Of a stretch of 64,000 nt of DNA, positions 5,653 to 58,088 are shown piece after piece; positions within the stretch are counted from its first letter, which is position 1, and each line of letters opens with the position of its first letter. Made by a program: the position numbers and the translations under genes. The stretch is from Gemmatimonadales bacterium. GTDB taxonomy: Bacteria > Gemmatimonadota > Gemmatimonadetes > Gemmatimonadales > GWC2-71-9. The stretch covers positions 9,569 through 73,568 of the forward strand of contig JBAOHR010000010.1 of NCBI GenBank assembly GCA_037045245.1. Reading direction: 5' to 3'. The notes below the pieces were generated by a model. It was not told where the DNA came from. It made no database searches and saw nothing but the letters and a program-made list of their open reading frames with translations.

Positions 5653-5680
5653 GTAGGGGCGCGGCATGCCGCGCCCATAC
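5653..5680. repeat. 28-nt REP-like palindrome, copy 1 (GTAGGGGCGCGGCATGCCGCGCCCATAC)
   Basis: Near-perfect palindrome. It belongs to the same family as 6958, 20374 and 24058. Confidence 0.8.
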
Positions 5681-6957: not shown

Positions 6958-6985
6958 GTAGGGGCGACGCATGCGTCGCCCGTAC
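6958..6985. repeat. 28-nt REP-like palindrome, copy 2 (GTAGGGGCGACGCATGCGTCGCCCGTAC)
   Basis: It starts 4 nt after the tuf stop and is identical to the copy after the second tuf. Confidence 0.85.
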
Positions 6986-7069
6986 CCACCCGCCAGGCTT
7001 CGGCCTGCGAGGGGATCGATGGAAGGGCGCAGCCTGCTGCGCCCGCTCAGGCCCAGGCACGGAGTGGCA

Positions 7070-7863: not shown

Positions 7864-7868
7864 GCATT

Positions 7869-7903
7869 ATCGATCATCGATGATCGATCATCGATCATCG
7901 ACA
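7869..7903. repeat. five tandem heptamers (ATCGATC/ATCGATG/.../ATCGACA) containing a perfect 20-nt palindrome
   Basis: ATCGATCATCGATGATCGAT (7869-7888) is self-complementary. The tract begins 6 nt after the nusG stop. Confidence 0.85.
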
Positions 7904-8035
7904 GTTGGTGCAGGACCGGGAGAGCTCGCTCTCCCCCGGCGACCGCCCCGGGTCAAACGGCGGCAGGTCCAGCGATGACCGCTGGTCCGTCATTCGGTGT
8001 CCCGCGCAGCCAGCGGGCACCGTTACAGGAGCGAC

Positions 8036-19264: not shown

Positions 19265-19271
19265 ACCGCAG

Positions 19272-19393
19272 GAGTCGTGAGTCATGAGTCGTGAGACGGC
19301 GGCCGGGGAGACCTGGCCGCCGTTTCATTTCGTTTCACGGTCCCACGCCCCCCATTCTCAGGACTCAGGACTCACGTCTCACGCCTGCTCCGC
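19272..19393. repeat. heptamer-built inverted repeat after rpoC: (GAGTCRT)x3 ... (WCTCASG)x4 with an inner GC hairpin
   Basis: Left arm 19278-19297 matches the reverse complement of 19366-19385 at 18/20 positions. The inner hairpin is CGGCGGCC...GGCCGCCG. Confidence 0.75.
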
Positions 19394-19397
19394 TCCC

Positions 19398-19426
19398 TTG
19401 ACCGGGTTGCGGTTCCCCCGTATCTT
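19398..19426 (+). promoter_or_regulatory. candidate promoter of the str operon, TTGACC-17 nt-TATCTT
   Basis: TTGACC at 19398-19403 and TATCTT at 19421-19426, 70 nt upstream of the rpsL ATG. Confidence 0.45.
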
Positions 19427-20374: not shown

Positions 20375-20401
20375 TAGGGGCGAGGCATGCCTCGCCCGTA
20401 C
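20374..20401. repeat. 28-nt REP-like palindrome, copy 3 (GTAGGGGCGAGGCATGCCTCGCCCGTAC)
   Basis: It overlaps the last base of the rpsG stop codon. The central pair of positions differs from the other copies but remains complementary. Confidence 0.85.
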
Positions 20402-22745: not shown

Positions 22746-22818
22746 GGTCATAGGTCGTAGGTCCCAGGTCGTAGGCTGACCTGATCCGACACGACCTACG
22801 ACTTACGACTTACGACCG
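22746..22818. repeat. heptamer-built imperfect inverted repeat after fusA: (GGTCRYA)x4 ... (ACGACYT)x4
   Basis: Left units are GGTCATA GGTCGTA GGTCCCA GGTCGTA; right units are ACGACCT ACGACTT ACGACTT ACGACCG. The innermost units are exact complements. Confidence 0.75.
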
Positions 22819-22851
22819 TAGCACTGAACCAGAACTTTCGAGGATCGGGAC

Positions 22852-24057: not shown

Positions 24058-24085
24058 GTAGGGGCGACGCATGCGTCGCCCGTAC
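24058..24085. repeat. 28-nt REP-like palindrome, copy 4 (identical to copy 2)
   Basis: It sits at the same offset after the tuf stop as copy 2. Confidence 0.85.
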
Positions 24086-24237
24086 TCACCAGGCTTCGGC
24101 CTGGTGCGGTTTCCGGAAGTAAGGGCGCAGCCTGCTGCGCCCATGCAATGCAGGTGAACCGGGGTGGCTCGACCGCCCCACAGCGGCAGTGACGCGGGAC
24201 AATCCCGCGCCATGATGAGCATCAGAGAGGACTCACG

Positions 24238-34855: not shown

Positions 34856-34893
34856 GTCACGGGGGCGCCTGCGCCCCCGGCTGGACGGCAGAC

Positions 34894-34950
34894 GTCAAAC
34901 GTGAAACGGGAGCCCGAAGGTCGGCCTCCGTTTCACGTTTCACCTTTCAC
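34894..34950. repeat. heptamer-built hairpin after secY: (GTSAAAC)x2 ... (GTTTCAC)x3
   Basis: AAACGTGAAACGG(G)AG at 34897-34912 pairs with CTCCGTTTCACGTTT at 34926-34940 (15 bp, one bulge, 13-nt loop). A separate GC hairpin GGGGGCG-CCTG-CGCCCCC lies at 34861-34878. Confidence 0.8.
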
Positions 34951-35013
34951 GGTGGGCCGTTTACGTTCCCGGGATACCCTGAGTCGTCACCATTCACCGC
35001 ACGGAGTTCGCTC

Positions 35014-35580: not shown

Positions 35581-36332
35581 TCACGATCAAGTCGGCGCGG
35601 GAGCTCGACACGATGGCCCGCGCCGGGCGCATCCTGCACGCGACCCTGCAGCGGATGCAGGAGATCCTCCGGCCCGGCATGTCGACCGAGGACCTCGACG
35701 CCGAGGCCGAGCGGTTCATCCGCTCGCACCCCGGCGCATTGCCGTCGTTCAAGGGCTTGTACGGCTTCCCGAAGACGCTCTGCATCTCGATCGACGAGGA
35801 GATCGTCCACAGCATCCCGTCGCCGCGGCGGATCCTCGCCGAGGGATCGATCGTCTCCATCGATTGCGGCGTCTGCATCGAGGGGCTGCACGCCGACTCC
35901 GCCACGACCCTCCCCGTCGGCGCGATCTCGGCGGAGGCGCAGCGGCTCCTCGACGTGACGCAGCAGTCGCTCGTCGCCGGGATCGCCGCGGCGACGGTGG
36001 GACACCAGGTGGGCGACATCGGCCACGCGGTGCAGACGGTCGCCGAGGCGGCGGGCTATGGCGTGGTGCGCGAACTCGTGGGCCACGGCATCGGCACCCG
36101 CTTCCACGAGGAGCCGCAGGTCCCGAACTTCGGCAAGCCGGGCCGCGGCGCGGCCCTCCGGGCCGGAATGACCCTCGCGATCGAGCCGATGATCACGATG
36201 GGGAAGCCGGCCACCAAGACGCTCAAGGACAAGTGGACCGTGGTGACCGCGGATGGGTCACTGGCGGCGCATTTTGAGCATACGGTGGCGGTGCTGGAGG
36301 GTGGGCCGAGAATCTTGACCGATGGGTCGTGA
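35577..36332 (+). CDS. map: type I methionine aminopeptidase
   Basis: 251 aa with a GTGA overlap with adk. Metal-ligand context is typical of MetAP (IVSIDCG, GHGIG, MTLAIEPM, FEHTV). Confidence 0.95.
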   Translation: MITIKSARELDTMARAGRILHATLQRMQEILRPGMSTEDLDAEAERFIRSHPGALPSFKGLYGFPKTLCISIDEEIVHSIPSPRRILAEGSIVSIDCGVCIEGLHADSATTLPVGAISAEAQRLLDVTQQSLVAGIAAATVGHQVGDIGHAVQTVAEAAGYGVVRELVGHGIGTRFHEEPQVPNFGKPGRGAALRAGMTLAIEPMITMGKPATKTLKDKWTVVTADGSLAAHFEHTVAVLEGGPRILTDGS

Positions 36333-36419
36333 GTCCTGAGTCCTGAGAGTTGTGAGGCCGGCATCCCCGCGGATCGTCGGCCTCTCCGCCCTCAGGACTC
36401 AGGACTCAGGACTCACGAC
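36324..36419. repeat. 22-bp perfect inverted repeat made of GAGTCCT/CTCAGGA heptamers, with an inner GC hairpin
   Basis: GTCGTGAGTCCTGAGTCCTGAG at 36326-36347 is the exact reverse complement of 36398-36419. The 50-nt loop contains GAGGCCG...CGGCCTC. The arms include the stop codons of map (36330-36332) and suhB (36399-36401). Confidence 0.9.
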
Positions 36420-37193
36420 TCCCCGCAACCACCCCGCCATCTCCCCACTCCCCGCCACCACCCCGCTGTGCTCCACGCCGAGCGCGCTGCCGTCCAGCTT
36501 CGTCACCACCCCTCCCGCTTCCCGCACCAGCACGATCCCGGCAGCCATGTCCCACGGGGCCAGCATCAGTTCCCAGAAGGCCTCGAAGCGCCCCAGCGCG
36601 ACGTCGACCAGGTCGAGGGCGGCCGACCCGCCGCGGCGAACCCCGGCCGTGGCGCCAAGGACCGCGGCCATCTGCGGCAGGTAGGTCGGGATCAGGTCGG
36701 GATGCTTGAAGGGGAAGCCGGTGCCGATGAGCGCCTGGCCCGGGTCGTGGATCGTGGAGACCCGCATTCGATCACCGTTGGCCCACGCCCCGCCGCCCTG
36801 CCAGGCGGTGTAGCGGCGGTGCGCCGTGGCGTGGAAGACCGTCCCCGCGACCAGCTCGCCGTCGAGGGCCGCGCCGATGGAGACGCACCACATCGGATGG
36901 CCGTGGAGGAAATTGGTGGTGCCGTCGAGCGGATCGACCACCCAGACCAGGCCGTCCATTGCCTCGGCGTCGGGGGAGATCTCCTCGCCCATGACCCGGC
37001 TCGAGGGCTCGGCGCGGAGCAGCGTCTCGCGGATGCGTTCCTCCGCCCCCTGGTCGATCGCCGTCACGTAGTCGTGGTGGCCCTTGGCGGTCCAGGTGGC
37101 CGGGTCCGGACGCGCGGCACCCAGGAGGAACGAGGCGGCTCGGGCAGCGGCCCGTTCCGCCAGGCGGGCCAGGGCGGCGGCCTCGCGGCTCAT
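36399..37193 (-). CDS. suhB: inositol monophosphatase family protein (SuhB-like)
   Basis: 264 aa from ATG 37193 with the motifs WVVDPLDGTTNFLHG and WDMAAG. The ORF-track start at 37358 is antisense to trpS and was rejected. Confidence 0.88.
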   Translation of the reverse strand: MSREAAALARLAERAAARAASFLLGAARPDPATWTAKGHHDYVTAIDQGAEERIRETLLRAEPSSRVMGEEISPDAEAMDGLVWVVDPLDGTTNFLHGHPMWCVSIGAALDGELVAGTVFHATAHRRYTAWQGGGAWANGDRMRVSTIHDPGQALIGTGFPFKHPDLIPTYLPQMAAVLGATAGVRRGGSAALDLVDVALGRFEAFWELMLAPWDMAAGIVLVREAGGVVTKLDGSALGVEHSGVVAGSGEMAGWLRGVVSPES

Positions 37194-39319: not shown

Positions 39320-40600
39320 ATGTTCGACCGGAAGCACAGCTGCATCGTGGTGGTCGGCGCCCAGTGGGGCGACGAAGGGAAGGGGAAGCTGGTCGACGTG
39401 CTGGCCGAGCAGGCGAACGTCGTCGTGCGCTACCAGGGCGGCGCCAATGCGGGCCACACAGTCGTGGTCGGCGATCGCCAGTTCGTCCTGCACCAGATCC
39501 CGTCCGGGATCCTCCATGCCGGCGCCAAGTGCGTCGTCGGCAACGGCGTGGTGCTCGACCCCGAGACCTTCTTCGCCGAACTCGACGAACTCGCGACCCA
39601 GGGGATCGACGTCTCCGGCCGCCTCTTCATCTCGGACCGGGCGCACGTCGTGCTGCCGTACCACAAGCTGCTGGATGCCGCGAGCGAGAAGCAGCAGCAG
39701 ATCGGCACCACGGGGCGGGGCATCGGGCCGACCTACGAGGACAAGATCGGTCGGCGCGGCGTGCGCGTCGCCGACCTGATCCGCGCCAACGTCTCGCGGG
39801 AGTTCGTGGCCGACCGGATCGAGCGGGCGAACGCCCTCCTCGCGATGATGGGGTCGACGGTGCGCGCCGACCTTGAGGAGCACCTCGCCCTCATGGAGCG
39901 CCTGGGCGCCCGTCTGCGGCCACTGGCGACCGACACGGGGTTGCTGGTCCACCAGGCCCTCCGCAGCGGTCAGCGGGTCCTCCTCGAGGGCGCGCAGGGC
40001 GCCCTCCTCGACGTGGACCACGGGACCTATCCGTTCGTCACGTCGTCGAACACGACGGCGGGCGGCGCGGCGATCGGCGCCGGGATCGGTCCGACCGAGA
40101 TCGACGGCGTCCTGGGGGTGGTGAAGGCCTACACGACCCGCGTCGGCAACGGCCCGCTGCCGACCGAGGCCGGGGGCGACCTCGAGGAGCGGCTGCGCAC
40201 CCTCGGCGGCGAGTTCGGTGCGACCACCGGCCGCCCGCGCCGCTGCGGCTGGTTCGACGCCACCGTGGTCCGCTACTCGGTCCGTGTCAACGGCCTCACC
40301 GGCCTCGCGGTCACCAAGCTCGATGTCCTCGACTCGTTCGCCGAGATTCCGGTCTGCACCGCGTATCGCCTCGATGGCGAGGTCTGCAGCGAAGTGCCGA
40401 GCGACGTCGAGCGGCTGGGTCGGGTGGAGCCGGTCTACGAGTCGCTGCCGGGGTGGCAGCGGCCGACCGACGGCGCGCGCAAGCTCGCCGACCTGCCGCC
40501 CGCGGCGCGTGCCTATCTCGACCGGTTGCAGGATCTCTCCGGGGCACCGATTCGGTATGTGAGCGTGGGGACGCGGCGGGATCAGATCATCGAGTGCTGA
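39320..40600 (+). CDS. purA: adenylosuccinate synthase
   Basis: 426 aa (GAQWGDEGKGKLVD, GTTGRGIGPTYEDK, TTGRPRRCGW). Confidence 0.97.
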   Translation: MFDRKHSCIVVVGAQWGDEGKGKLVDVLAEQANVVVRYQGGANAGHTVVVGDRQFVLHQIPSGILHAGAKCVVGNGVVLDPETFFAELDELATQGIDVSGRLFISDRAHVVLPYHKLLDAASEKQQQIGTTGRGIGPTYEDKIGRRGVRVADLIRANVSREFVADRIERANALLAMMGSTVRADLEEHLALMERLGARLRPLATDTGLLVHQALRSGQRVLLEGAQGALLDVDHGTYPFVTSSNTTAGGAAIGAGIGPTEIDGVLGVVKAYTTRVGNGPLPTEAGGDLEERLRTLGGEFGATTGRPRRCGWFDATVVRYSVRVNGLTGLAVTKLDVLDSFAEIPVCTAYRLDGEVCSEVPSDVERLGRVEPVYESLPGWQRPTDGARKLADLPPAARAYLDRLQDLSGAPIRYVSVGTRRDQIIEC

Positions 40601-40602
40601 AG

Positions 40603-40703
40603 GCGAGAAGCGAGAAGCGAGAAGCGTGAAGCGTGAAGCGTGGCCCAGCGGTGAGATCCTCCCGCCGAGCCACGCTTCTCGCTTCTCGCTTCTCGCTTCT
40701 CGA
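40603..40703. repeat. ~35-bp imperfect inverted repeat made of heptamers: (GCGAGAA)x3(GCGTGAA)x2 GCGTGGC ... GCCACGC (TTCTCGC)x3 TTCTCGA
   Basis: Read directly from the sequence. The loop is 24 nt (40645-40668). The element fills the whole gap between convergent purA and the PilX-like gene. Confidence 0.9.
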
Positions 40704-40705
40704 CG

Positions 40706-42754
40706 CTACTGCGCCCGCAAGTCCGCGAAGTACGCCGCCAGTCCCTTCTGCGCGAGCCACACCGGATCCAGTTCGTAGTAGCGCGACTCGATGAAGCGCC
40801 CCGTGGTCGGGAAGTACGGCGGCGGATTGATCGCGCCGCACGGGTCATACGCATGCGCCTCGGCGTAGCCGTACGAGGAGGAGGCGGTGTAGTCGCTGTA
40901 GGTGTAGTAGTCGACGCGGCCCATCGCGATGCCGCCGCTCACGCGCACACAGCCCGCCGGCGCGCCACCGCACCGCTCGGCGGTGGCGGTCGCATCGAAG
41001 GTGCCGGTGAGGAAGTAGGGCGCGGCCGGGCCCGGGACGCCGTTCAGGCCGGTCGTGTAGAAGTTGCCGGTCGTGCCGGTGCCGCTGCCGGCGGCGAGGA
41101 TGAACATGTTGAACTGCTCATCCGTCGGGGTGTCGTCGAAGCCGCCGAACATCCGGGCCGCGACGCGGAACGGGGTCTGCACGTTGTTGTCGGCGATGAT
41201 CGCGTCGAGCGTCGCGATGCTCCCCATGATGTCGCCTTCGGCGTCGCACTTGGTGCCCGGCGCGTTGTGATAGAGGACGTCGTCGGCGAGGATGATGTTG
41301 CCCGTGGCGAAGACCGAGACACGGCCCCGCAGCTTGCCGCTCACGGCGACGTCGCCCTGCACGAAGACCACACCCTTGAAGTTGACGTTGGCGCCGAGCG
41401 GGATCAGGTAGGCGGCATCAGAGCGCACCGCGCTGAGGCCGGCCATCGCACCGCTGCGGCGCTTCTTCCAGAATCCCATCGGATACGTCAACGAGTTGGT
41501 GATCGTGGAGTCGGGTGTGATCACGCTCGACCCGGTGGTCGAGAAGAGCTCGGGGGCGCCGCCCAGCAGGCACTTGCGGGTGCCGGCGGGGGAGGGCGAG
41601 GCCGTGATTGAAGCCGGGCGCGTCCCCTGGGTGCCGCCCGAAAGGACGTACTGGACCGCGGCCCGCTTCACGGCGGCGGTGCCCGTGACGAAGTCGTACA
41701 CGTCCCTGGCCGTGTAGAAGTCCTGGGTGCCGTTCAGGTTGACCACGGCACCACAGTTCCACGACTGCATGTTGGGGTCGTCGTTGTAGGTCGTGCCCGA
41801 CGGGACGCGCGGCCAGCGACGGCCGGTCGTGTAGGCGAGCACCGAGTCGGAGGTGTTCCGGGCCACCCAGACCCGCATGAAGCCCTCGTTCCATTCGATC
41901 GTGCCGTTGCCGTTCACGTCGACGGTCAGGAACTCGATGCGCATCCCGGGCGTGTGCGACCCCGTGGTCGGGGCGGTGAGATCGTAGTCGCCGTTCGCGG
42001 CGTCGGCATCCTGGGCATACTGCCGCATCAGGTTGATGCGGGCCGGCGTCGGCCAGGGCACCGCCGTCGCACCGACCTTGATCCCCTTGCGGTAGTCCCC
42101 GGAGCTCTGGTTCGTCACCGAACCGACGACCGTGACCGGACCGGCGAAGACGGTCTTCGGCGAGGTGCAGCCCGACTGCAACTTGAGGGCGTTGTTCGAG
42201 TGGAACGGCCCCGTGATCGACTCGCTGCAGCCGTACGCCGCCGAGCCCGCCCAGTTGTTGACGGCGACGGCGAACTTGGCCCACGATTCCTGCGTCAGGA
42301 GCAGGCGTCGGGCGGCGACGGCGCCGCGTCCGTCACGAATCACGGAGAGTGCGCTGGCGAAGTTGCTCCCGTACTGCCCGGCGGTGGCCGAACCGCCGGT
42401 GCGCCCGCCGGTCCGTCCCACGTAGAGGGAGCGGGAGATGTACGGCACCGTGCCGCCCAGGGCGTCGAGCACCGGGGCGTTGCTGGCCATCGTCGTGTAG
42501 CCGTTGAACGGCAGCAGCGAATCGAAGATGCCGCGGTTGAGCGAGTCGCGGATGATCTCGAGGCCGCCGTTCGCCGCCGCTTGCAGTGCGGCTTCCTTCG
42601 CCGTGAACTTGGTGGTCTCCTGGGCGGCACCGCTCATGAGGATCGCGCCCATGGCCATCGCCGCGATCGCGATCGACACCAGCAGCGTGAGGATGAGGGC
42701 GGCGCCGCGCCGGTCGTGGCGCAACGCGCGGGGGCGTGGCAGCGTGGTGGTCAT
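40706..42754 (-). CDS. large PilX-N-terminal-domain protein (putative pilus-tip/minor-pilin-associated protein)
   Basis: 682 aa from ATG 42754 (ATGA overlap with the upstream gene). The N-terminus RRGAALILTLLVSIAIAAMAMGAIL resembles the PilX_N pattern. The rest is Gly/Thr/Ser/Asn-rich and beta-helix-like (KGVVFVQGDVAVSGKLRGRVSVFATGNIILADDVLY). The 975-aa ORF-track start was rejected. Confidence 0.7.
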   Translation of the reverse strand: MTTTLPRPRALRHDRRGAALILTLLVSIAIAAMAMGAILMSGAAQETTKFTAKEAALQAAANGGLEIIRDSLNRGIFDSLLPFNGYTTMASNAPVLDALGGTVPYISRSLYVGRTGGRTGGSATAGQYGSNFASALSVIRDGRGAVAARRLLLTQESWAKFAVAVNNWAGSAAYGCSESITGPFHSNNALKLQSGCTSPKTVFAGPVTVVGSVTNQSSGDYRKGIKVGATAVPWPTPARINLMRQYAQDADAANGDYDLTAPTTGSHTPGMRIEFLTVDVNGNGTIEWNEGFMRVWVARNTSDSVLAYTTGRRWPRVPSGTTYNDDPNMQSWNCGAVVNLNGTQDFYTARDVYDFVTGTAAVKRAAVQYVLSGGTQGTRPASITASPSPAGTRKCLLGGAPELFSTTGSSVITPDSTITNSLTYPMGFWKKRRSGAMAGLSAVRSDAAYLIPLGANVNFKGVVFVQGDVAVSGKLRGRVSVFATGNIILADDVLYHNAPGTKCDAEGDIMGSIATLDAIIADNNVQTPFRVAARMFGGFDDTPTDEQFNMFILAAGSGTGTTGNFYTTGLNGVPGPAAPYFLTGTFDATATAERCGGAPAGCVRVSGGIAMGRVDYYTYSDYTASSSYGYAEAHAYDPCGAINPPPYFPTTGRFIESRYYELDPVWLAQKGLAAYFADLRAQ

Positions 42755-49787: not shown

Positions 49788-50807
49788 ATGACCCTCCGCC
49801 TCAGCACCGAGATCCTCGCCCTCCGCACCCGCCACCCCTTCATCATCGCGCGGGGCGGGCAGAGCGACTACCGCACCCTGATGGTCAAGATCACCGACGA
49901 CGACGGCGTCGAGGGATGGGGCGAGGCCGCCGCAACGCGCTTCTACGGCGAGACGCTGGAAACCGTCCAGGCCGCGCTCGCCACCTATGGCACGCTGCTC
50001 GGTGATGACCCGCACCAGCTCGAGGCGATCGAGCGGCGGCTCGAGATCACCCTGCGTCGGAACGCGGCCGCCCGCGTCGCCATCTCGGCCGCGCTCCACG
50101 ATCTCGTTGGCAAGCGCCTCGGCGTGCCGCTCTGGCGCTACTGGGGGCTCGACCGTGCGGCCGCACCGCGCTCGACGTTCACCATCGGGATGGACACGCC
50201 GGAGATGATCCGCCTCAAGGTCGGCGAGGCGGCGGAATATCCGATCCTCAAGATCAAGCTCGGCGGCCCCGACGATCTCACCCTGCTGCGCACGATTCGC
50301 GACGCGACGGACAAGGAACTGCGCGTCGACGCGAACTGCGGCTGGACCCCGGTGCACACGGTGCGGATGCTGCCGGTGCTCGAGGAGTTCGGCGTGACCG
50401 TGCTCGAACAGCCGGTGCCGCCCGAGGATCTCGACGGCCTCGCGCACATCCATCGGCACGCGCGGATCCCGTTGATCGCCGACGAGAGCTGCGTCACGTC
50501 GGGCGACATCGCGCGGCTGGTCGGCCGCGTCGACGGCATCAACATCAAGCTGGCCAAGTGCGGTTCGCTGCGCGAGGCGCTGCGGATGATCGCGATCGCG
50601 CGCACGCACCAGATGACGGTGATGGTCGGTTGCATGATCGAGTCGTCGCTCGGGATCACGGCGGCCGCGCACTTCACGCCGCTGGTCGACATCGTCGACC
50701 TCGACGGCGCGGCGCTGCTGTCGCAGGATCCGTTCGTCGGGGCCGGCATCGCGGGCGGGCAGGTGACGCTCCCCGATGCCCCCGGGCTGGGTGTGACGCG
50801 ACGATGA
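49788..50807 (+). CDS. dipeptide epimerase-like enolase-superfamily enzyme (L-Ala-D/L-Glu epimerase type)
   Basis: 339 aa with the motifs KIKLG, RVDANCGW, LEQPV, ADES and DLDG. Confidence 0.85.
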   Translation: MTLRLSTEILALRTRHPFIIARGGQSDYRTLMVKITDDDGVEGWGEAAATRFYGETLETVQAALATYGTLLGDDPHQLEAIERRLEITLRRNAAARVAISAALHDLVGKRLGVPLWRYWGLDRAAAPRSTFTIGMDTPEMIRLKVGEAAEYPILKIKLGGPDDLTLLRTIRDATDKELRVDANCGWTPVHTVRMLPVLEEFGVTVLEQPVPPEDLDGLAHIHRHARIPLIADESCVTSGDIARLVGRVDGINIKLAKCGSLREALRMIAIARTHQMTVMVGCMIESSLGITAAAHFTPLVDIVDLDGAALLSQDPFVGAGIAGGQVTLPDAPGLGVTRR

Positions 50808-53224
50808 CCGACCGGTACGCGCAGGTCGCCCTGCCGCTGCCACTCGCCGAGCCGTACCGCTACCGGATCCCGGCCACCCTCGCCGATCGCGCGCTCCCCG
50901 GGGCGCGCGTCGTCGTTCCGGTCCGGCGCGAGGAACTCATCGGCATCGTGACGGCGGTCGACGTGCCGCCGCCGCCCGCCGCGGCGCGCGACATCCTCGC
51001 CGCGCCCGAACGCCGAGGTGGCGCTGCCGCGCGCCGTTGCTGGCGCTGGCGGCACGGGCGGCGCGCTACTACGGCGCGCCGCCGGGGCTGATGCTGCGCG
51101 CGATGCTGCCGGCGGCGCTCTGGGGGCAGTCGACGGTGATGCTTCACCTGGAGAGCACCGCCCGCGCCGTGGGTGGCGGGACGGCGGGCGATCTCGTGGA
51201 GTGGCTTGATCGGCGCGGTGGCAGCGGCACCATCCAGGCGGCGAGTCGCGCCCTCAAGAAGCCGCTCTGGGAGGCCGCCGATCGGTTGCAGCGCGTCGGC
51301 GCGCTGTCGCTGGAGGTCGTGCCGCCGGACACCGACGGTGCGGCGGCCGACCACGCGCACGGCCGCAATCGTCGGCGAAGCGCTCCCGCTGCTGGCCCGC
51401 GACGCCCATTTCCTCCGGAAGCCGGCGCAGCGCAAGCTCTACGAACTGCTCGAGGGGCGCGGTGGCCGGATGGCGGTGCGCGGCCTGCTCGAGGCGAGCG
51501 GTGCCACCATCGGCCCGTTGCAGCGGCTCGCAGCGTCGGGGTTGATCGCGCTGCTCGACGACGAGACCTCGCGCGATCCCTTCGCCGATCTTCCCTCGAG
51601 TCCGCCACCGCCGCATCTCACCGCCGACCAGGTCAGCGCCCTCGCGATGCTGCGCACGATCGCTCCGGGCGAGACGTCCCTGCTCTTCGGTGTGACCGGC
51701 TCGGGGAAGACGCTGGTCTATCTCGAGCGGATCCGCGAACTCCTCGCCGAGGATCGCGGTGCGATCGTCCTCGTGCCCGAGATCGCGTTGACGCCGCAGA
51801 CGGTCGCGCGGCTGCGCGGTGCCTTCGGCGACGACGTCGCGGTCCTCCACAGCGGCCTCAGCGACGGCGAGCGCGCCGATGCCTGGCGATCGCTCCGCCG
51901 CGGTGAACGGCGGGTCGCCGTCGGCGCCCGCTCGGCGATCTTCGCGCCCGTGCGCAACCTCGGCCTGATCGTGATCGACGAGGAGCACGAGTCGAGCTAC
52001 AAGAACGGCGAGACGCCGCGCTACCACGCGCGCGAGATCGCCGCCTGGCGTGCGCGCCTCGAAGAGGCCGCGATCATCCTCGGATCGGCCACTCCCGCGC
52101 CCGAGAGCTGGGCCCGCCTCGCGCCCGCGCATGTCGTCCGACTTCCGGCGCGGATCGGGGAGCGACCGATGCCGCCAGTGGAGCTGGTGGACCTTCGCGC
52201 GACGCCGATCGTGGCCCACCCGACCGGCGTCCCGTGGAGCACCGTCCTCGACGACGCGGTGACGGCGGCGCTCGCCCGCCAGGAGCAGGTGTTGCTCCTC
52301 CTCAACCGGCGCGGCTGGGCGGCGTTCGTGCAGTGCACCGCCTGCGGCGAGGTGGTGCAGTGCCCCAACTGCAGCATCTCGCTCACGGTGCACCGGAACC
52401 CCGACGAACTCCGCTGCCACTACTGCGACCATCGCCGGGAAATCCCGACCGCCTGTCCGGCGTGCCAGGGCACCACCACGCGTCACCTGGGGGCCGGCAC
52501 GCAGCAGGTCGAACGCCTCGTCGCGGAGCGTTTTCCGGCGGCGCGCCTCGCCCGGATGGACCTCGACACGACGGCGAGCAAGTGGGGGCACCACCGCATC
52601 CTCGAACGCGTCGGCCAGGGCACGGTCGACGTGCTCATCGGGACCCAGATGATCGCGAAGGGGATCGACTTCCCCAACGTGACGCTGGTCGGCGTCGTCG
52701 ATGCGGACACGGCGCTCCACCTCCCCGACTTCCGCTCGGCCGAACGCACCTTCCAGCTCATCGCGCAGGTGGCCGGGCGCGCCGGGCGAGGGCCGAAGGG
52801 CGGCAAGGTCCTGGTGCAGACGCGGCAGCCCGACCATCCGGCGCTCGGGTTCGCGGCACGACACGACGCCGAGGGATTCCTCGTGGCCGAGCTCGAGGCC
52901 CGCCGCTCGCCGCCGTATCCGCCCACCACCTCGCTCGTCCGGATCGTGGCGAGCGGCGAGGATGGCGGCGCCGTGGCCGAGCGGATCACCGCGCTCGCGA
53001 CGTGGTGCGACGCGCTCATCACCCGTCTCGACCTCCCGCTGACCCTGCTCGGTCCGGCGCCGTGTCCGATCGAACGGATCACCAACCGGTGGCGCCATCA
53101 CCTGCTGCTCAAGGGCGAGGCGGCGGTGCTCGGCGGCGTGGTGCGGGCACTCGCCCCGAAGCTCGGCGCGATGCGGGGCGATGTGCGGTTGGCGTTGGAT
53201 CGGGATCCGGTGTCGTTGTTATGA
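50804..53224 (+). pseudogene. priA: primosomal protein N' (PriA); the N-terminal ~550 nt needs three +1 frame changes as sequenced
   Basis: The PriA-like text runs in the 50804 frame to about 51008 (MTDRYAQVALPLPLAEPYRYRIP...DILAAPE). It then shifts by +1 (AEVALPRA), by +1 again (LLALAARAARYYGAPPGLMLRAMLP...LEVVPPDTDGAAA), and returns to the original frame near 51340-51365. The remainder is intact (GVTGSGKT, DEEH, four CxxC zinc motifs). Confidence 0.7.
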
Positions 53225-53328
53225 GTCGTGAGTTGTGAGTCCTGAGTCGTGAGAGGTCGTTGGCCGTTAGTCGTTGGTCGTTAGCCGTTGGTCGTTAGAG
53301 GTCGTAGGTCGTAGGTCGTAGGTCGTAG
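53223..53328. repeat. 15 consecutive in-phase heptamers directly after the priA stop
   Basis: The units are GAGTCGT GAGTTGT GAGTCCT GAGTCGT GAGAGGT, then CGTTGGC CGTTAGT CGTTGGT CGTTAGC CGTTGGT CGTTAGA, then (GGTCGTA)x4. A single unbroken 7-nt register runs from 53223 to 53327. Confidence 0.9.
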
Positions 53329-54641
53329 GGGCGTGTCTGTTTGTCTGTGTATGAGCCGAGGTTATGCATCGGCGGGGACGCGATCCCCGAAGAGCAATCG
53401 AATGTGCCGCATCGCCTCGCGCCAGTGCTGGGGCGGCTGGAAGCGGACGGTTGCGTGGCGGAGCGCGAGGTACAGGAGCTTGGCCGCGGCGTCGGCGTTC
53501 GGAAAATGGCCGCGGACCTTGAGTGACTTCCGCAGCGTGGCGTGCAGGCTCTCGATCGCGTTGGTCGAGTAGAGCAGGCGGCGGACCGGCACGGGATAGA
53601 GGAGCGCGGGGCTGATGCGCGCCCAGTGTCGGTGCCACAGCGGCGCGATTTCGGGATACGCCGTCCCGACCGGGCTCGCCGCAAACGCCGCCAGGGCCTG
53701 CTGCGCGGCCGCGTCGCTCGGGGCCAGGTAGATCGCCCGCAGCGCGGACGCCACGGCCCGACGCTCGCGCCAATTGACGGTGCGTAGACTCTGCCGCACC
53801 AGATGCACGACGCACTGCTGCACGACCGTCTCCGGAAACACCGCCTCAATCGCCGCCGGAAAGCCCGCCAGGCCATCGATCAGGGTGATCAGGATATCCC
53901 GCACCCCCCGGCCCTGCAGCTCGGTCAGGACGCGCTGCCAAAACGCGGCGCTCTCCTCCGCCGCAATCCAGAAGCCGAGCACGTCCTTGGTGCCGTCGGG
54001 GAGGAAGCCCAGCGCGAAGTAGACCACCTGCTGCCGGACGATCCCCTCGGTGCGCATCTTGACCCGCAGGCCATCCAGCGCGACCGCGACATACACCGGC
54101 TCGAGCGGCCGCTGCTGCCACGCCTGCGCCTCGTCCCACACGGCGTCGGTCACGGCGGTGATGACATCGGCCGAGACGGGGACCTGGTAGCACTCCTCCA
54201 GGTGGGCCTGGAGCTCCCGCACGGTGAGGCCCCGGGCGTAGAGCGACAGCACCTTTTGGTCGAAGCCCGGCAGGCGGCGCACCCCTTTCGGCACGAACGC
54301 CGGCGTGAAGGTCCCGGCCCGATCGCGCGGGATCGCCAGCGGCAAGGCGCCCTCATCGGTCAGCACGGTCTTCGGCGTGGTGCCATTGCGCGCATTACCG
54401 TCCGCGCCGCGCCCCTCGCCGGGCGGATAGCCCAGATGCTCGGTCAGCTCGGCCTGCAGCACCTGCTCGACCATCCGCTGCTTCAGGGCCCGGAACACCG
54501 CCTCCAACTGCTCGGGCGTCCGGACATCCGCCACCAGCGCCTCGACCGCGGCCTGCTGCGGATCCTCCCCTTTCCTCTGTCGTGCCATGGCCTACCTCCC
54601 GCTGTAGGATATGGCTCATACACAAACTTTCCGACAGGCCC
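53329..54641 (-). mobile_element. IS256-family insertion sequence, 1313 bp, with 29-bp imperfect terminal inverted repeats and an 8-bp target-site duplication
   Basis: IRL is GGGCGTGTCTGTTTGTCTGTGTATGAGCC (53329-53357). The reverse complement of 54613-54641 is GGGCCTGTCGGAAAGTTTGTGTATGAGCC (23/29 identical). The direct repeat GGTCGTAG is present at 53321-53328 and 54642-54649. Confidence 0.9.
53362..54588 (-). CDS. IS256-family (mutator-type) transposase
   Basis: 408 aa with typical IS256 transposase sequence ([10 protein letters not shown]...[31 protein letters not shown]...). Confidence 0.95.
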
Positions 54642-54657
54642 GGTCGTAGATTTCTGG

Positions 54658-54748
54658 TCACCGTTCACCGTTCACCGTTCACCGTTCACCGTTCACCGTT
54701 CACCGTTCACTGGTCACTGGTCACCGCTCACCCCTCACCCCTCACCAC
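54658..54748. repeat. 13 tandem heptamers: (TCACCGT)x7 (TCACTGG)x2 TCACCGC (TCACCCC)x2 TCACCAC
   Basis: Read directly from the sequence. It is in register with the tract left of the IS once the IS and one TSD copy are removed. It ends 8 nt before the arsB ATG. Confidence 0.9.
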
Positions 54749-54755
54749 CCCCAAC

Positions 54756-56036
54756 ATGCTCCTCGCCGTCCTCATCTTCCTCGTCACGATCACTCTCGTG
54801 ATCTGGCAGCCGCGCAAGCTCGGCATCGGCTGGAGCGCGTGTGGCGGGGCAGTGGTGGCCTTGCTGCTCGGCGTGGTCTCCGTGGCCGACATCGGGACGG
54901 TCTGGGGCATCGTCTGGAACGCGACGATCACCTTCGTGGCGATCATCCTCACCTCGCTGATCCTCGACGAGGCCGGCTTCTTCGAGTGGGCCGCGCTGCA
55001 TGTCGCGTCGTGGGGCGGGGGGAACGGGCGCCGGCTCTACGCGGCGATCATCCTGCTCGGGGCTGCCGTGTCGGGGCTCTTCGCCAACGATGGCGCGGTG
55101 CTGATCCTCACGCCGATCGTGATGGCGATCCTCGTTGCGCTCCGGATGCCGCCGGCGGCGACGCTCGCGTTCGTCATGGGGGCCGGTTTCATCTCCGACA
55201 CGGCATCGCTCCCGCTGGTGATCTCGAACCTCGTCAACATCGTGACGGCCGACTTCTTCCACGTCGGCTTTGCCCGCTATGCCGCGGTGATGCTCCCGGT
55301 GAACCTCGTCTCCGTGGCGGCGACGCTGGGCGTGCTCCTGCTCTACTTCCGCCGCGACATCCCCCACCACTATGACGCCTCCGCCCTCAGGCGCCCCGCC
55401 GAGGCGATCCGTGACCGGCCGACCTTCCTGCTGGGCTGGGTGGTGCTGGTGTTGTTGCTCGCCGGCTTCTTCCTGGGTGAGCGGCTGGGCCTGCCGATTA
55501 GCGCGGTGGCCGTGGCCGGCTCCGCGGTACTCTTTGCGATGGCGGCGCGCGGTCACGTGATCGACACGCGCAAGGTGCTGCGCGAGGCGCCGTGGCAGGT
55601 GGTGCTCTTCTCGCTGGGGATGTACCTGGTGGTGTACGGGCTGCGGAACGCGGGGCTCACGGCCGCACTCGCGGGCGTGCTGAACCGGATCCCTGCCGAG
55701 GGCACGCTGGCACCCGCGCTCGGCACCGGGCTGCTGACGGCGTTCCTCTCGTCGATCATGAACAACATGCCGACGGTGCTGATCGGGGCGCTCTCGATTG
55801 ATGCGTCGACCGCGACGGGGGCCGCGCGCGAGGCGATGGTCTACGCCAACGTGATCGGCAGCGACCTCGGCCCGAAGCTCACGCCGATCGGGTCGCTGGC
55901 GACGCTGCTCTGGCTCCATGTGCTCGCGCGCAAGGGAATCACCATCACCTGGGGCTACTACTTCCGGGTGGGCGTCGTGCTGACGATCCCCGTGCTCGTG
56001 ATCACGCTCGCCGCGCTGGCCTGGCGCCTGAGCTGA
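54756..56036 (+). CDS. arsB: arsenite efflux pump membrane protein ArsB
   Basis: 426 aa from ATG 54756. It is closely similar along the N-terminal region to my recollection of E. coli ArsB (LVIWQP..LGIGWSA...IVWNAT...[12 protein letters not shown]...LFANDGA.LILTPIV). The ORF-track start at 54582 reads through the repeat and the IS end and was rejected. Confidence 0.9.
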
Positions 56037-56042
56037 GGCGCC

Positions 56043-58088
56043 CTAGAAGCGGAAGGTGACGCCGCCGGTCAACGTGCGTCCGGCGGCCGGCTCGAACACT
56101 CGCCCGAAGCCGCCATTCACCGTCACCGATCCGATCACTCGCCGGTTGAAGAGATTCTGCGCCGTGACAAACGGGGCGAACTCGTGCCGCCCGCGCGCGA
56201 CCCAGCGAAGGCGAACCCCGGTGATCCCCGTCCCCCATCCGGCCGCCTCGAGTGTGTTGGCATCGTCACCGTACTGACTGGCGGCCAGGGCGTGGTCGAT
56301 GTCGAAACCGATCCGTCGCACGGCGCCGCGAACACCCAGTCGCGCCACCGTCCGCGGGATGCCGGCGATGCGTCGGCCGTCGAGCCGCACGCCATTCACG
56401 AGGTAATCCCGGAAGGTCGCATCGGTCACCGTCACGGTGGCGAGGCCCACGATGCCCGGGCGCAGCGATGCGTGCGCCGCAGCCTCGACGCCGCGGGTGC
56501 GCGTCCTGCCCGCGTTGGTGTAGTACGACCGACCACCGACTTCCTGGAATGGAGTGATCGCGTCCCGCGTCGAGGTGGTCCAGGCGGAGGCTTCGACCTG
56601 GCCACCGGCGAACGGGCTCCGTACGCCAACTTCGAATGACACACTGCGCTGCGGGTCGAGGACGCGATTGAGTCCGGTGCTGCCATCCGGCTGGTTCGCG
56701 AGCTCGGTGGTGGTCGGTGTCTCGAACGCCGTCGACAGCGAGGCCCATGTCGTGGCGCGGCCGATGGCGCGCGTGAGCGAGGCGCTCCCGCTCACCGCGG
56801 ACATGGCGCGCGTCCCGCTGCCGCTCCCCAGCGCGTCGGCCACGTCGAAGGAGGTGTGGTCCCACCGGACGCCGCTCCGCAGCTGCCACACGCCACGAAT
56901 CAGCGTGGCCTGCGCGAAGAGCCCGGCTTCGCCCACCGTCTCGCGCTGGTCGAGCAACAGGGGCCCATAGGGGGTGCCCTTGCGATGGCGTCGATTGATG
57001 CGATCGTCGCGACTGGATTGCAGGTCGACACCTGCGGTCACCTGATGCAGGCCAAGCCGCCGCGTGATGCTGGCCCGAAGGCCCCCGCCGAGTCGGTCGA
57101 GTCCGACCCAGAGCCCTTCGTCGGCAGGGTTCGGTGCAGGCGCCGGGGCGGCCAGCGGGTTTTCGAGCGACCGCGTGAGGAGCCAAAGCCGCACCTCGCT
57201 GCTCCAGTCACCGCGCGCGTCGTCGAGGCCCAGCGAGAACTGCTTCTGGCGCACCGCCTTGCCGGCGTTTCGCAACACGTTGTTGGGTGCGGCGAGGTCC
57301 GGGTTCGATGCCGCCTCGGCGGCCGTCAGGGCGCCCGGGTTGTCGGCCAACGGGTCATTCGCCCAGGCGGCGCGAGCGGTGATCGTGGTGGTCGGGCGCA
57401 GCGCGTAGGCGACCGCGTACTGCGCCCGACGCTGTTCGGTCCCGGAGTGATCGCGGTAGCCGTCGTTCTTGGTGAGCGAATTCTGGATGCTCAGCCTCGC
57501 GCGCCCGAGCACGATCGTTCCGTGACTCTCGAATCGGCTGCCCTGATCATCGAGTCGTTCGACCCCGAAGTGGATCGTCGGGGTCGAGTCCCTGTCCGTT
57601 CGCGACGTGAATGCGATCACTCCGCCGGCTGCGTTGCCGTACAGCGACGACGCGGCGCCCCGTAGCACCTCGATCTGGGTGGTCGCGCCGAGGTCGAGGT
57701 TGGTGAGTTGGCTCTGTCCGTCGGGCAGCGTCTGCGGGATGCCATCGACGAGGATCTTGATGCCGCGCACGCCGAAGGCTGCCCGCGCGCCAAAGCCGCG
57801 GATGATGAGCCGCTGGTCGACCGACGGATTCCCGCGGCTGGCCGCGATCACCCCCGGCACGAACGCGAGCGCCTCGTCGAGCCCCCCGGCCAGCCGCCCC
57901 CGGCGCAGCGCCACGGAATCGACCACCGTGACCGATGCCCCGAGCCGCGCCAGCGAGTCGGGGGCGCGGGTCACGCTCACGCGGATCGGGGGGAGTGCTG
58001 CGGCGCTGTCGGGGCGCTGGCCCTGCAGGGGGGCGAGGGGGACGAGGAGGAGCAGGGGGGCAGCGAGTCGGGCGGGGCGAGGGGGCAT
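56043..58088 (-). CDS. TonB-dependent outer-membrane receptor
   Basis: 681 aa from ATG 58088 with a signal peptide (MPPRPARLAAPLLLLVPLAPLQGQ), a plug domain (VTVVDSVAL...IIRGFGARA..GVRGIKILVDGIPQT) and a C-terminal TFRF. The 1041-aa ORF-track extension was rejected. Confidence 0.9.
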   Translation of the reverse strand: MPPRPARLAAPLLLLVPLAPLQGQRPDSAAALPPIRVSVTRAPDSLARLGASVTVVDSVALRRGRLAGGLDEALAFVPGVIAASRGNPSVDQRLIIRGFGARAAFGVRGIKILVDGIPQTLPDGQSQLTNLDLGATTQIEVLRGAASSLYGNAAGGVIAFTSRTDRDSTPTIHFGVERLDDQGSRFESHGTIVLGRARLSIQNSLTKNDGYRDHSGTEQRRAQYAVAYALRPTTTITARAAWANDPLADNPGALTAAEAASNPDLAAPNNVLRNAGKAVRQKQFSLGLDDARGDWSSEVRLWLLTRSLENPLAAPAPAPNPADEGLWVGLDRLGGGLRASITRRLGLHQVTAGVDLQSSRDDRINRRHRKGTPYGPLLLDQRETVGEAGLFAQATLIRGVWQLRSGVRWDHTSFDVADALGSGSGTRAMSAVSGSASLTRAIGRATTWASLSTAFETPTTTELANQPDGSTGLNRVLDPQRSVSFEVGVRSPFAGGQVEASAWTTSTRDAITPFQEVGGRSYYTNAGRTRTRGVEAAAHASLRPGIVGLATVTVTDATFRDYLVNGVRLDGRRIAGIPRTVARLGVRGAVRRIGFDIDHALAASQYGDDANTLEAAGWGTGITGVRLRWVARGRHEFAPFVTAQNLFNRRVIGSVTVNGGFGRVFEPAAGRTLTGGVTFRF

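Follow-up and report, generated by a model that had tools for sequence, protein, structure and literature searches.

A length-variable heptamer tract between priA and arsB of a Gemmatimonadales bacterium, member of an intergenic repeat family starting at stop codons

The spacer between priA and the arsenical pump gene arsB in a 64,000-nt stretch of DNA (69% G+C; hereafter 'the window') from an uncultured Gemmatimonadales bacterium is a single tract of heptameric repeats, split by an insertion sequence (IS), and belongs to a family of heptamer arrays beginning at stop codons that occurs genome-wide here and in many further high-GC environmental bacteria. With about even confidence, we favour viewing this tract as a slippage-prone heptamer microsatellite, that is, as a passive and unstructured intercistronic spacer through which arsB is read from the priA operon; the view of the tract as a dedicated arsB switch is largely unsupported. 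The class of heptameric intergenic repeats is known, and what is added here is that the units bear stop codons and begin at the gene's own stop codon.

Once the IS and one copy of its 8-bp target-site duplication are removed, the spacer comprises 210 nt, corresponding to 30 units in one 7-nt register which runs from the priA stop codon (TGA, 53222-53224) to 53328 and then from 54650 to 54745/54755. Tandem Repeats Finder (TRF) calls period-7 arrays at the spacer, and the lag-7 identity of the reconstituted sequence is 0.79, compared with 0.26 ± 0.03 (maximum 0.38) in 2000 shuffles; identity is 0.72 at lag 14 and 0.65 at lag 21, and does not exceed 0.35 at the remaining lags. The phased heptamer tract of ~200 bp split by an IS, which had been proposed from a sequence-only reading of the window, is thus confirmed. 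Counted from the T of the stop codon, five TGAGTCG-type units are followed by six of the TCGTTGG/CCGTTAG type, four AGGTCGT units and a single AGATTTC, and the right half then proceeds through TGGTCAC, seven CGTTCAC, two TGGTCAC, CGCTCAC, two CCCTCAC and CACCCCCAAC to the arsB ATG. Hence the unit does change stepwise as had been claimed (TGAGTCG, TCGTTGG/CCGTTAG, AGGTCGT, TGGTCAC/CGTTCAC, CCCTCAC), and the array, whose end had been put 8 nt before the ATG, stops ~8-10 nt before it (at 54748 according to the sequence-only reading, with the last full CCCTCAC ending at 54745).

The two halves are not complementary and differ in composition. The left half (G 40%, C 15%; its reverse complement accordingly C 40%, G 15%) holds four stop codons in each plus-strand frame, whereas the right half (99 nt, C 48%, G 13%, 32 pyrimidine-C (YC) dimers) has neither stop codons nor any ATG, GTG or TTG on the plus strand, and four to five stops per frame on the minus strand, carried in GGTGAAC, GTGACCA and GTGAGGG. 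We considered the right half as a hidden N-terminal extension of ArsB and rejected this possibility, given the lack of ATG, GTG and TTG inside it and a Pfam ArsB profile that begins at residue 3. An Rfam search of the window returned four tRNAs only and no known RNA family at the tract.

The length of the tract differs among strains. An exact-sequence look-up of ArsB yielded eight contigs from metagenomes or metagenome-assembled genomes (MAGs; contigs L001-L008), seven of which extend to priA and none of which carries the IS. These contigs come from communities sampled under ERZ28614577, ERZ15185901, PRJEB19935 and SRR285202xx; since they match the window at 98.3-99.7% identity in the flanks, they represent other strains of the same species. 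Length polymorphism had been named beforehand as the check to be made at this locus, and it is present: the IS-free spacers measure 175, 175, 196, 217, 217, 238 and 238 nt, which together with the 210 nt of the window are all multiples of 7, and the unit counts are 25, 28, 30 (window), 31 and 34. Variation is concentrated in perfect runs (CGTTCAC, 1-8 copies; the derived CGTTCCC, 0-5; TGGTCAC, 2-4; AGGTCGT, 3-4), whereas the 11 imperfect left-hand units are invariant across alleles, which is the pattern expected of replication slippage. A caveat is that the alleles come from short-read assemblies; however, the k-mers used for the ENA assemblies (127 and 141 for the megahit contigs) exceed the longest perfect run, which has 56 nt, and identical spacer alleles were found repeatedly in independent samples. 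Further searches added no allele: a scan of Joint Genome Institute (JGI) metagenomes for the junction GGTCGTAGATTTCTGGTCAC and exact look-ups of the window PriA and the window EF-Tu gave no match, the matches listed in a scan of genome contigs for ArsB had 65-75% identity, mostly from Proteobacteria, and included no orthologous loci, and Logan contigs with PriA or the TonB receptor end inside arrays and gave no further complete alleles.

Table 1. Features of the priA-arsB locus and heptamer elements elsewhere in the window.
Feature	Coordinates	Strand	Remarks
priA (primosomal protein N'), 3' part	51173..53224	+	Pfam DEAD, PriA_C, Zn_ribbon_PriA; 805-aa orthologues in L001 and others
Left half (G/T-rich), block 1: five TGAGTCG-type units, the first containing the priA stop codon	53222..53256	+	invariant in all same-species contigs
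Left half, block 2: six alternating TCGTTGG / CCGTTAG / TCGTTAG units	53257..53298	+	
Left half, block 3: four AGGTCGT plus AG, up to the IS insertion point	53299..53328	+	3 or 4 copies in other strains
Target-site duplication copy 1, 8 bp, GGTCGTAG	53321..53328	.	single copy in IS-free contigs
IS256-family insertion sequence, 1313 bp	53329..54641	-	inverted repeats, PF00872, NCBI name 'IS256 family transposase'
IS terminal inverted repeats, 29 nt	53329-53357 and 54613-54641		imperfect
IS transposase, 408 aa	53362-54588	-	Mutator-family (IS256-type), PF00872 Transposase_mut, E = 7e-105
Target-site duplication copy 2, GGTCGTAG	54642..54649	.	
ATTTC; with AG at 53327-53328, the odd central unit AGATTTC bridging both halves	54650..54654	+	
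Right half, C-rich, G-poor, hypervariable	54655..54745	+	unit composition; C 48%, G 13%
CACCCCCAAC tail immediately 5' of the arsB ATG	54746..54755	+	without SD-like motif
arsB, arsenical pump membrane protein, 426 aa	54756..56036	+	PF02040, E = 5.6e-151, profile positions 1-419 of 423
TonB-dependent receptor gene, convergent to arsB	56043..58088	-	
Heptamer element after nusG (ATCGATC)	7865-7905		hairpin z = -3.37
Heptamer element after rpoC	19271-19387		hairpin z = -6.07
Heptamer element after fusA, before tuf	22746-22819		hairpin z = -4.33
Heptamer element after secY	34884-34951		hairpin z = -2.65
Heptamer element after map	36326-36426		hairpin z = -8.77
Heptamer element after purA	40596-40708		hairpin z = -10.47

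The IS belongs to the IS256 family, as indicated by its Mutator-type transposase, its inverted repeats, the 8-bp duplication and the empty site in L001-L007. Its size (~1.3 kb), its one Mutator-type transposase (PF00872), the imperfection of its terminal inverted repeats and the 8-bp length of the target duplication are all as in other members of the family, and it shows no atypical feature. The empty site, ...AGGTCGTAGGTCGTAGATTTCTGGTCAC..., is accompanied by four AGGTCGT units as in the window (L002, L004-L007) or by three (L001, L003). A comparison with strains lacking the IS had been suggested at the outset, and these seven contigs, with ArsB 100% identical, show the empty site that had been predicted; they thereby confirm the single register after excision of the IS and one duplication copy, which also holds with the IS ends defined here, although a break of phase at the exact ends had been foreseen as a possible refutation. 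The IS, inserted where the two halves meet and with its transposase directed away from arsB, would break transcriptional coupling between priA and arsB, and in the window strain arsB is probably cut off from transcription that starts upstream. At least three copies of the IS256 family transposase are present in the MAG (66 contigs), and the 1313-bp IS is also found in ten other contigs. Heptamer arrays (GGTGAAC, GTGAAAC/CGTTTCA, GAGTCGT, CCCTCAC) very often adjoin the other copies of this IS (L225-L234), several of which lie near the centre of an inverted element; in the window, the IS separates the two halves precisely where they join.

At the RNA level the tract folds more weakly than shuffled sequences, both in the window species (z = +2.09) and in four relatives (z = +2.38, +1.24, +2.49 and +2.78), while the z-scores of the six other heptamer elements of the window range from -2.65 to -10.47; the array is direct and not inverted, as had been claimed, and a hairpin or a 5' untranslated region (5'-UTR) structure like that of the Haemophilus influenzae hmw genes is ruled out by folding. 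Consistently, no site resembling an intrinsic terminator is found in the tract. A consensus scan, which covers promoters of the sigma-70 type alone, found none in the spacer with or without the IS, and recovered the rpsL promoter (TTGACC-17-TATCTT, 19398-19426) as a positive control. As had been noted, a Shine-Dalgarno (SD)-like motif is likewise missing before the arsB ATG; we rejected this as an arsB-specific trait, since only 12 of the 28 genes called in related contigs have an SD-like tetramer. The conclusion drawn earlier, that the element driving arsB has to lie within the array or next to it, is not supported: apart from the missing sigma-70-like promoter and the abundance of SD-less genes, the tract is kept in two relatives without arsB (L095, L222). 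An arsB-specific reading of the array is weakened also by like variation at purA and map and by the absence of the hmw-type 5'-UTR hairpin. Given the lack of both a hairpin and a detectable promoter of its own, arsB is probably transcribed through the tract from the priA operon.

Six further heptamer elements, making seven heptamer loci in the window, all of them intergenic, directly follow stop codons, are inverted, and fold into strong hairpins (Table 1). The element after rpoC has a terminator-like central stem of 17 pairs (19291-19328) and is directly followed by the rpsL promoter, and the members after rpoC, fusA, secY, map and purA look like hairpin terminators or attenuators. In other bacteria, operon boundaries or attenuators are known at the six positions, including that after nusG. 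At six of six polar loci of the window, on either strand, the G-rich arm of the strand-asymmetric elements, containing TGA or TAG, adjoins the stop of the preceding gene. The rule for the family is then that an array begins with the stop codon of a gene, which it includes, and that its G-rich strand, being the sense strand of that gene and carrying TGA, TAG or TAA, gives a stop in each of the three frames within 21 nt.

This rule is illustrated by strains whose PurA is 100% identical (L096-L101), as they carry two unrelated alleles of the inverted purA element, one of the GCGAGAA type, TGA-AGGCGAG(AAGCGAG)n, and one of the GTCGTAA type, TAG-TCGCGAG(TCGTAAG)9-11. The swapped segment extends exactly between the stop codons of the two genes, that of purA itself being exchanged (TGA or TAG) and serving as first repeat unit of either allele, and copy number varies by one or two units within each; flank identity between the allele groups is 99.0% in purA and 96.2% in the convergent gene. 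Variation in copy number, which is also seen at the map array, is thus generic to the family. Moreover, a scan of JGI metagenomes for (TRRGTCG)4 gave at least 120 stretches, of which 80 contigs were retained and 44 with at least 60% G+C analysed. Among the matches listed in the latter, the array starts at the stop of a long sense open reading frame with high third-position G+C (GC3) in 17 of the 35 arrays with enough upstream DNA, and an antisense gene ends at the far end in 2 of the 35 with enough downstream DNA. The layout that recurs among these matches is a stop codon, (TRRGTCG)n, a central GC hairpin and (CGACYYA)n, followed by a promoter, by SD plus ATG, or by a convergent stop. (TRRGTCG)4 arrays also occur in contigs of 34-50% G+C (L102-L181), and the unit type is thus not exclusive to high-GC bacteria. 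A literature search yielded no relevant paper on these unit sequences, and none on such repeats in Gemmatimonadota.

The tract is also conserved beyond the species. Look-ups of PriA led to five further lineages at 10-16% DNA divergence, in each of which the priA stop is followed by a tract in two halves whose blocks come in the order GTTGGTC/GTTAGTC (the type of block 2, retained in all five), GTCGTAG/A, GTCACTG or GTTCACC, and CTCACCC, an order retained over 13-15% DNA divergence; complete spacers measure 83-132 nt, and those of L235/L236 are incomplete. In L093/L094 and L223/L224, which carry arsB, the C-rich half ends 3-8 nt before the ATG, whereas in L095 and L222, which lack arsB, the C-rich half leads directly into the stop codon that ends the convergent TonB-receptor gene. 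In a neighbour-joining tree of MR_MLE and priA DNA, L095 clusters with L222 (2.2% apart), with L093 nearest to the pair, so that a single loss of arsB is the most parsimonious history. Window and L223 differ at 108 nt and 13 residues of arsB, and ArsB (97% amino acid identity) has diverged in parallel with PriA (95%), which indicates that arsB is vertically inherited and under purifying selection, and hence presumably expressed. A recent insertion of arsB into a convergent junction was considered and is not supported, as the tree favours loss in L095/L222 and the divergence of ArsB tracks that of PriA. As to the assemblies themselves, in a groundwater relative (L235, 5010-5095) five GTCACTG units are followed by unrelated sequence (AAGTTAGACCGCC...), which may be another insertion at the priA tract, and the sister contig L236 proceeds into CTCACC units; in L093 (GCA_016720805.1, 8780-8800) a poly-G stretch, gggcggggggggggggga, interrupts arsB, is absent from the sister assembly L094 and is probably an assembly artefact; at the coordinates used, arsB of L094 gave no clean translation either.

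These findings can be accommodated by a mechanism in which the priA-arsB locus would consist of two stop-codon arrays placed head to head, one per strand. The left half would be a TRRGTCG-type array in the sense of priA, and the right half a minus-strand array of the kind that abuts the TonB-receptor stop in relatives without arsB. Ribosomes would be stopped by the left half in every frame and at any unit count, while RNA polymerase, with no hairpin in its way, would not be halted, and the tract would be single-stranded as RNA. Transcription of arsB would occur by read-through from the priA operon, since it has no detectable promoter of its own, and its translation would start from a G-poor, unstructured leader. 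Changes in length would arise by replication slippage, quickest in the long perfect CGTTCAC run, and might shift arsB output as a side effect, for example through a longer C-rich leader accessible to Rho.

Four points weigh against viewing the tract as a passive spacer. (i) Read-through from priA is deduced solely from folding, which yields no hairpin, and from a promoter scan which covers the sigma-70 type and yields none. (ii) As parsimony on the priA tree favours an ancestral arsB in this clade, the origin of the right half from a TonB-receptor array follows from the polarity rule and not from phylogeny. (iii) The block order is conserved across species here, while the purA element was swapped wholesale at 1-4% flank divergence, which hints at constraint on the tract. 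(iv) The five distinct IS-free alleles have 25, 28, 31, 34 and 34 units, the two 34-unit alleles differing in composition, and these counts all equal 1 modulo 3, which a purely passive spacer does not predict and which, were the alleles independent, would have a chance of ~(1/3)^4 = 0.012. Between the allele with 25 units and that with 28 (L001 and L004), three separate blocks change by +1, +4 and -2 units, adding up to +3, and the sole allele outside this class is the IS-disrupted allele of the window with its 30 units. Slippage is not limited to steps of 21 nt, since purA arrays from the same population differ in steps of one or two units. The alleles are few, related and not fully independent, and we regard the pattern as a lead rather than a result. 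That the unit count is selected for one class modulo 3 (21 bp, two helical turns), making the tract a three-state device which couples the end of priA to arsB, appears to us decidedly improbable; were it true, a bacterium living free in soil or water would have a contingency-type switch for the efflux of arsenic, and the strain with the IS would have escaped the constraint.

It is then tempting to ask whether the tract is a tunable or phase-variable leader of arsB in a broader sense, with the unit number setting expression either in a graded manner, as for hmw, or in three states by helical phase (3 units = 21 bp = 2 turns). We consider this unlikely. The polymorphism among near-identical strains agrees with it, as does the adjacency of the C-rich tract to the arsB ATG in all three arsB-bearing lineages; the IS-free alleles arrive in one class through compensating block changes, with the disrupted allele as the sole exception, and other arrays, which shift by one or two units, show no inherent three-unit bias. 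Precedents are available in the (ATCTTTC)n repeats of hmw (PMC12721329) and in TAACTGA repeats abutting SD-less start codons (PMC4679880). However, the sigma-70 consensus scan yields no promoter and folding no 5'-UTR hairpin, the tract persists without arsB in L095 and L222, housekeeping loci are equally variable, and start codons without SD are common in the lineage. Moreover, arsB is unlike the surface or restriction-modification genes which are usually under contingency control, and the modulo-3 pattern comes from five related short-read alleles. A bidirectional Rho-dependent terminator or attenuator, in which the G-rich, stop-dense part strips ribosomes and ~100 nt of C-rich RNA then load Rho, seems distinctly unlikely to us; in arsB-bearing genomes, longer C-rich runs would attenuate read-through into arsB proportionally more. 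Rut sites of E. coli are C-rich, G-poor and unstructured as RNA and comprise ~80 nt or more of untranslated sequence, and the composition of the right half, and likewise that of the reverse complement of the left half, is of this kind; furthermore, the tract is unstructured in five lineages, has no start codon and is untranslated, and it fills the convergent junction in L095/L222, where a terminator would be needed and a hairpin is absent. The match is one of composition only, though, and in both directions the C-rich segment is distal, 50-105 nt past the stop, where the opposite layout would put rut sites next to the stops; also, arsB is conserved under purifying selection and requires transcription from somewhere.

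As a last alternative, the tract might be an array of protein-binding sites or form non-B DNA or RNA structures (G-quadruplex, i-motif), as was proposed for heptamers of Xanthomonas and Nostoc. TRRGTCG recurs in many unrelated high-GC contigs, so that arrays of this type at stop codons could be recognised by a factor shared across many high-GC uncultured bacteria, and CCCTCAC provides, immediately 5' of arsB, C-tracts on the plus and G-tracts on the minus strand, with the alleles that have three CCCTCAC units (L002, L008) reaching four tracts of at least three G. Yet runs of G or C are missing from most units (GAGTCGT, CGTTCAC, TGGTCAC), alleles and species differ in how many G-tracts they have, and units that drift freely, or are swapped wholly as in the purA element, fit poorly with a fixed site. 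We thus consider this alternative highly improbable.

Heptameric intergenic repeats have been recognised as over-represented since 1990 and 2007, without an established function. In the account that two later papers give of Mrazek (2007), heptamer simple sequence repeats (SSRs) are the most abundant class of long SSRs in many bacteria, with slippage as the proposed cause (via PMC4679880, PMC4692102). The arrays described here belong to this intergenic class, as they show tandem 7-nt units, many intergenic loci, strand polarity and length variation. In Xanthomonas (GGGAATC) and Nostoc (GGGGAYT), such heptamers lie near or overlap stop codons with the G-rich strand as the coding strand, face an open reading frame with the C-rich strand when located upstream of it, sometimes form inverted pairs, differ extensively in length and sequence even among closely related genomes, and are without a known function (Rehm et al. 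2015, PMC4692102). The similarity to our arrays is evident, as both comprise many intergenic 7-nt arrays at stops with the same polarity, vary in length and sequence, and show no link to gene function. The units found here (TRRGTCG, GTGAAMC), however, are not quadruplex-prone, they bear stop codons and include the gene's own stop as first unit, two non-complementary arrays stand head to head, and the host is a member of Gemmatimonadota. Cyanobacterial short tandemly repeated repetitive (STRR) sequences are 7-bp intergenic repeats which often form hairpins between co-transcribed genes such as hupS and hupL, and roles in transcript stability or translational coupling were suggested (PMC2670836). 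The hairpin members after rpoC, fusA, secY, map and purA resemble them, whereas the priA-arsB tract forms no hairpin. The STRR2 unit TTGGTCA is presumably similar to the TTGGTCG and CTGGTCA of the window.

The analogy with hmw of H. influenzae drawn in the sequence-only reading is accurate as far as the literature is concerned, since expression of HMW1A is inversely proportional to the length of (ATCTTTC)n (PMC12721329); hmw1A and hmw2A have mapped promoters, and the repeats form an arm of a long 5'-UTR hairpin that is cleaved by RNase III (PMC12721329, PMC8262952). The priA-arsB tract likewise is a heptamer SSR upstream of a gene, ending 8 nt before the ATG, with a copy number that differs among isolates. 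In contrast to hmw, no promoter was found in or near it (in a scan for the sigma-70 type only), no RNase III-type 5'-UTR hairpin is formed (z = +1.2 to +2.8), and there is no gene-specific association, as the tract is present also without arsB. TAACTGA direct repeats of marine Beggiatoaceae, cyanobacteria and Bacteroidetes have a single fixed unit in 2-6 copies (MacGregor 2015, PMC4679880). These are also stop-containing heptamer direct repeats located a few nucleotides before start codons in place of a canonical ribosome-binding site, but their stops are on the sense strand of the downstream gene, whereas the part that abuts arsB is stop-free on that strand, and our units drift in arrays of 25-34.

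The family rule suggests a simple evolutionary logic, according to which only repeats that bear stops in all frames can expand at gene ends without ever lengthening the protein. The locus also makes heptamer function testable, since it offers a natural allelic series of 25-34 units in near-identical strains along with an IS-disrupted allele, sister lineages with and without arsB, and hairpin and non-hairpin members in one genome. The arrays probably mark operon boundaries in Gemmatimonadota, where, to our knowledge, classical U-tract terminators are rare. Finally, heptamer arrays break short-read assemblies and may attract IS256-family insertions; the arrays flanking other copies of the IS hint at such a target preference, but the contigs that show them are short-read chimeras without matching duplications.

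As for the neighbouring genes, priA overlaps the stop codon of its upstream gene by 4 nt in an operon-like manner, and the full-length 805-aa open reading frame of the relatives would begin near 50804. Compared with this frame, which is intact in all relatives, priA of the window has three 1-nt insertions (~51009, 51030 and 51349) that leave ~340 nt out of frame and reflect either an assembly error or a pseudogene. In arsB-bearing genomes the stops of arsB and the TonB-receptor gene are 6 nt apart (56034-56045 in the window) with no intergenic element between them; in the two further convergent pairs of the window that were examined, map/suhB and purA/downstream gene, the genes are separated by a heptamer hairpin. 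The window also contains a second family of intergenic repeats, palindromic hairpins GGGCGNNGC(A/C)TGCNNCGCCC that are mostly embedded in GTAGGGGCG...CGCCC(G/A)TAC, with six loci (5657-5676, 6962-6981, 7025-7044, 20378-20397, 24062-24081 and 24123-24142) where 0.08 are expected by chance; each of the two tuf copies is trailed by one pair of these hairpins.

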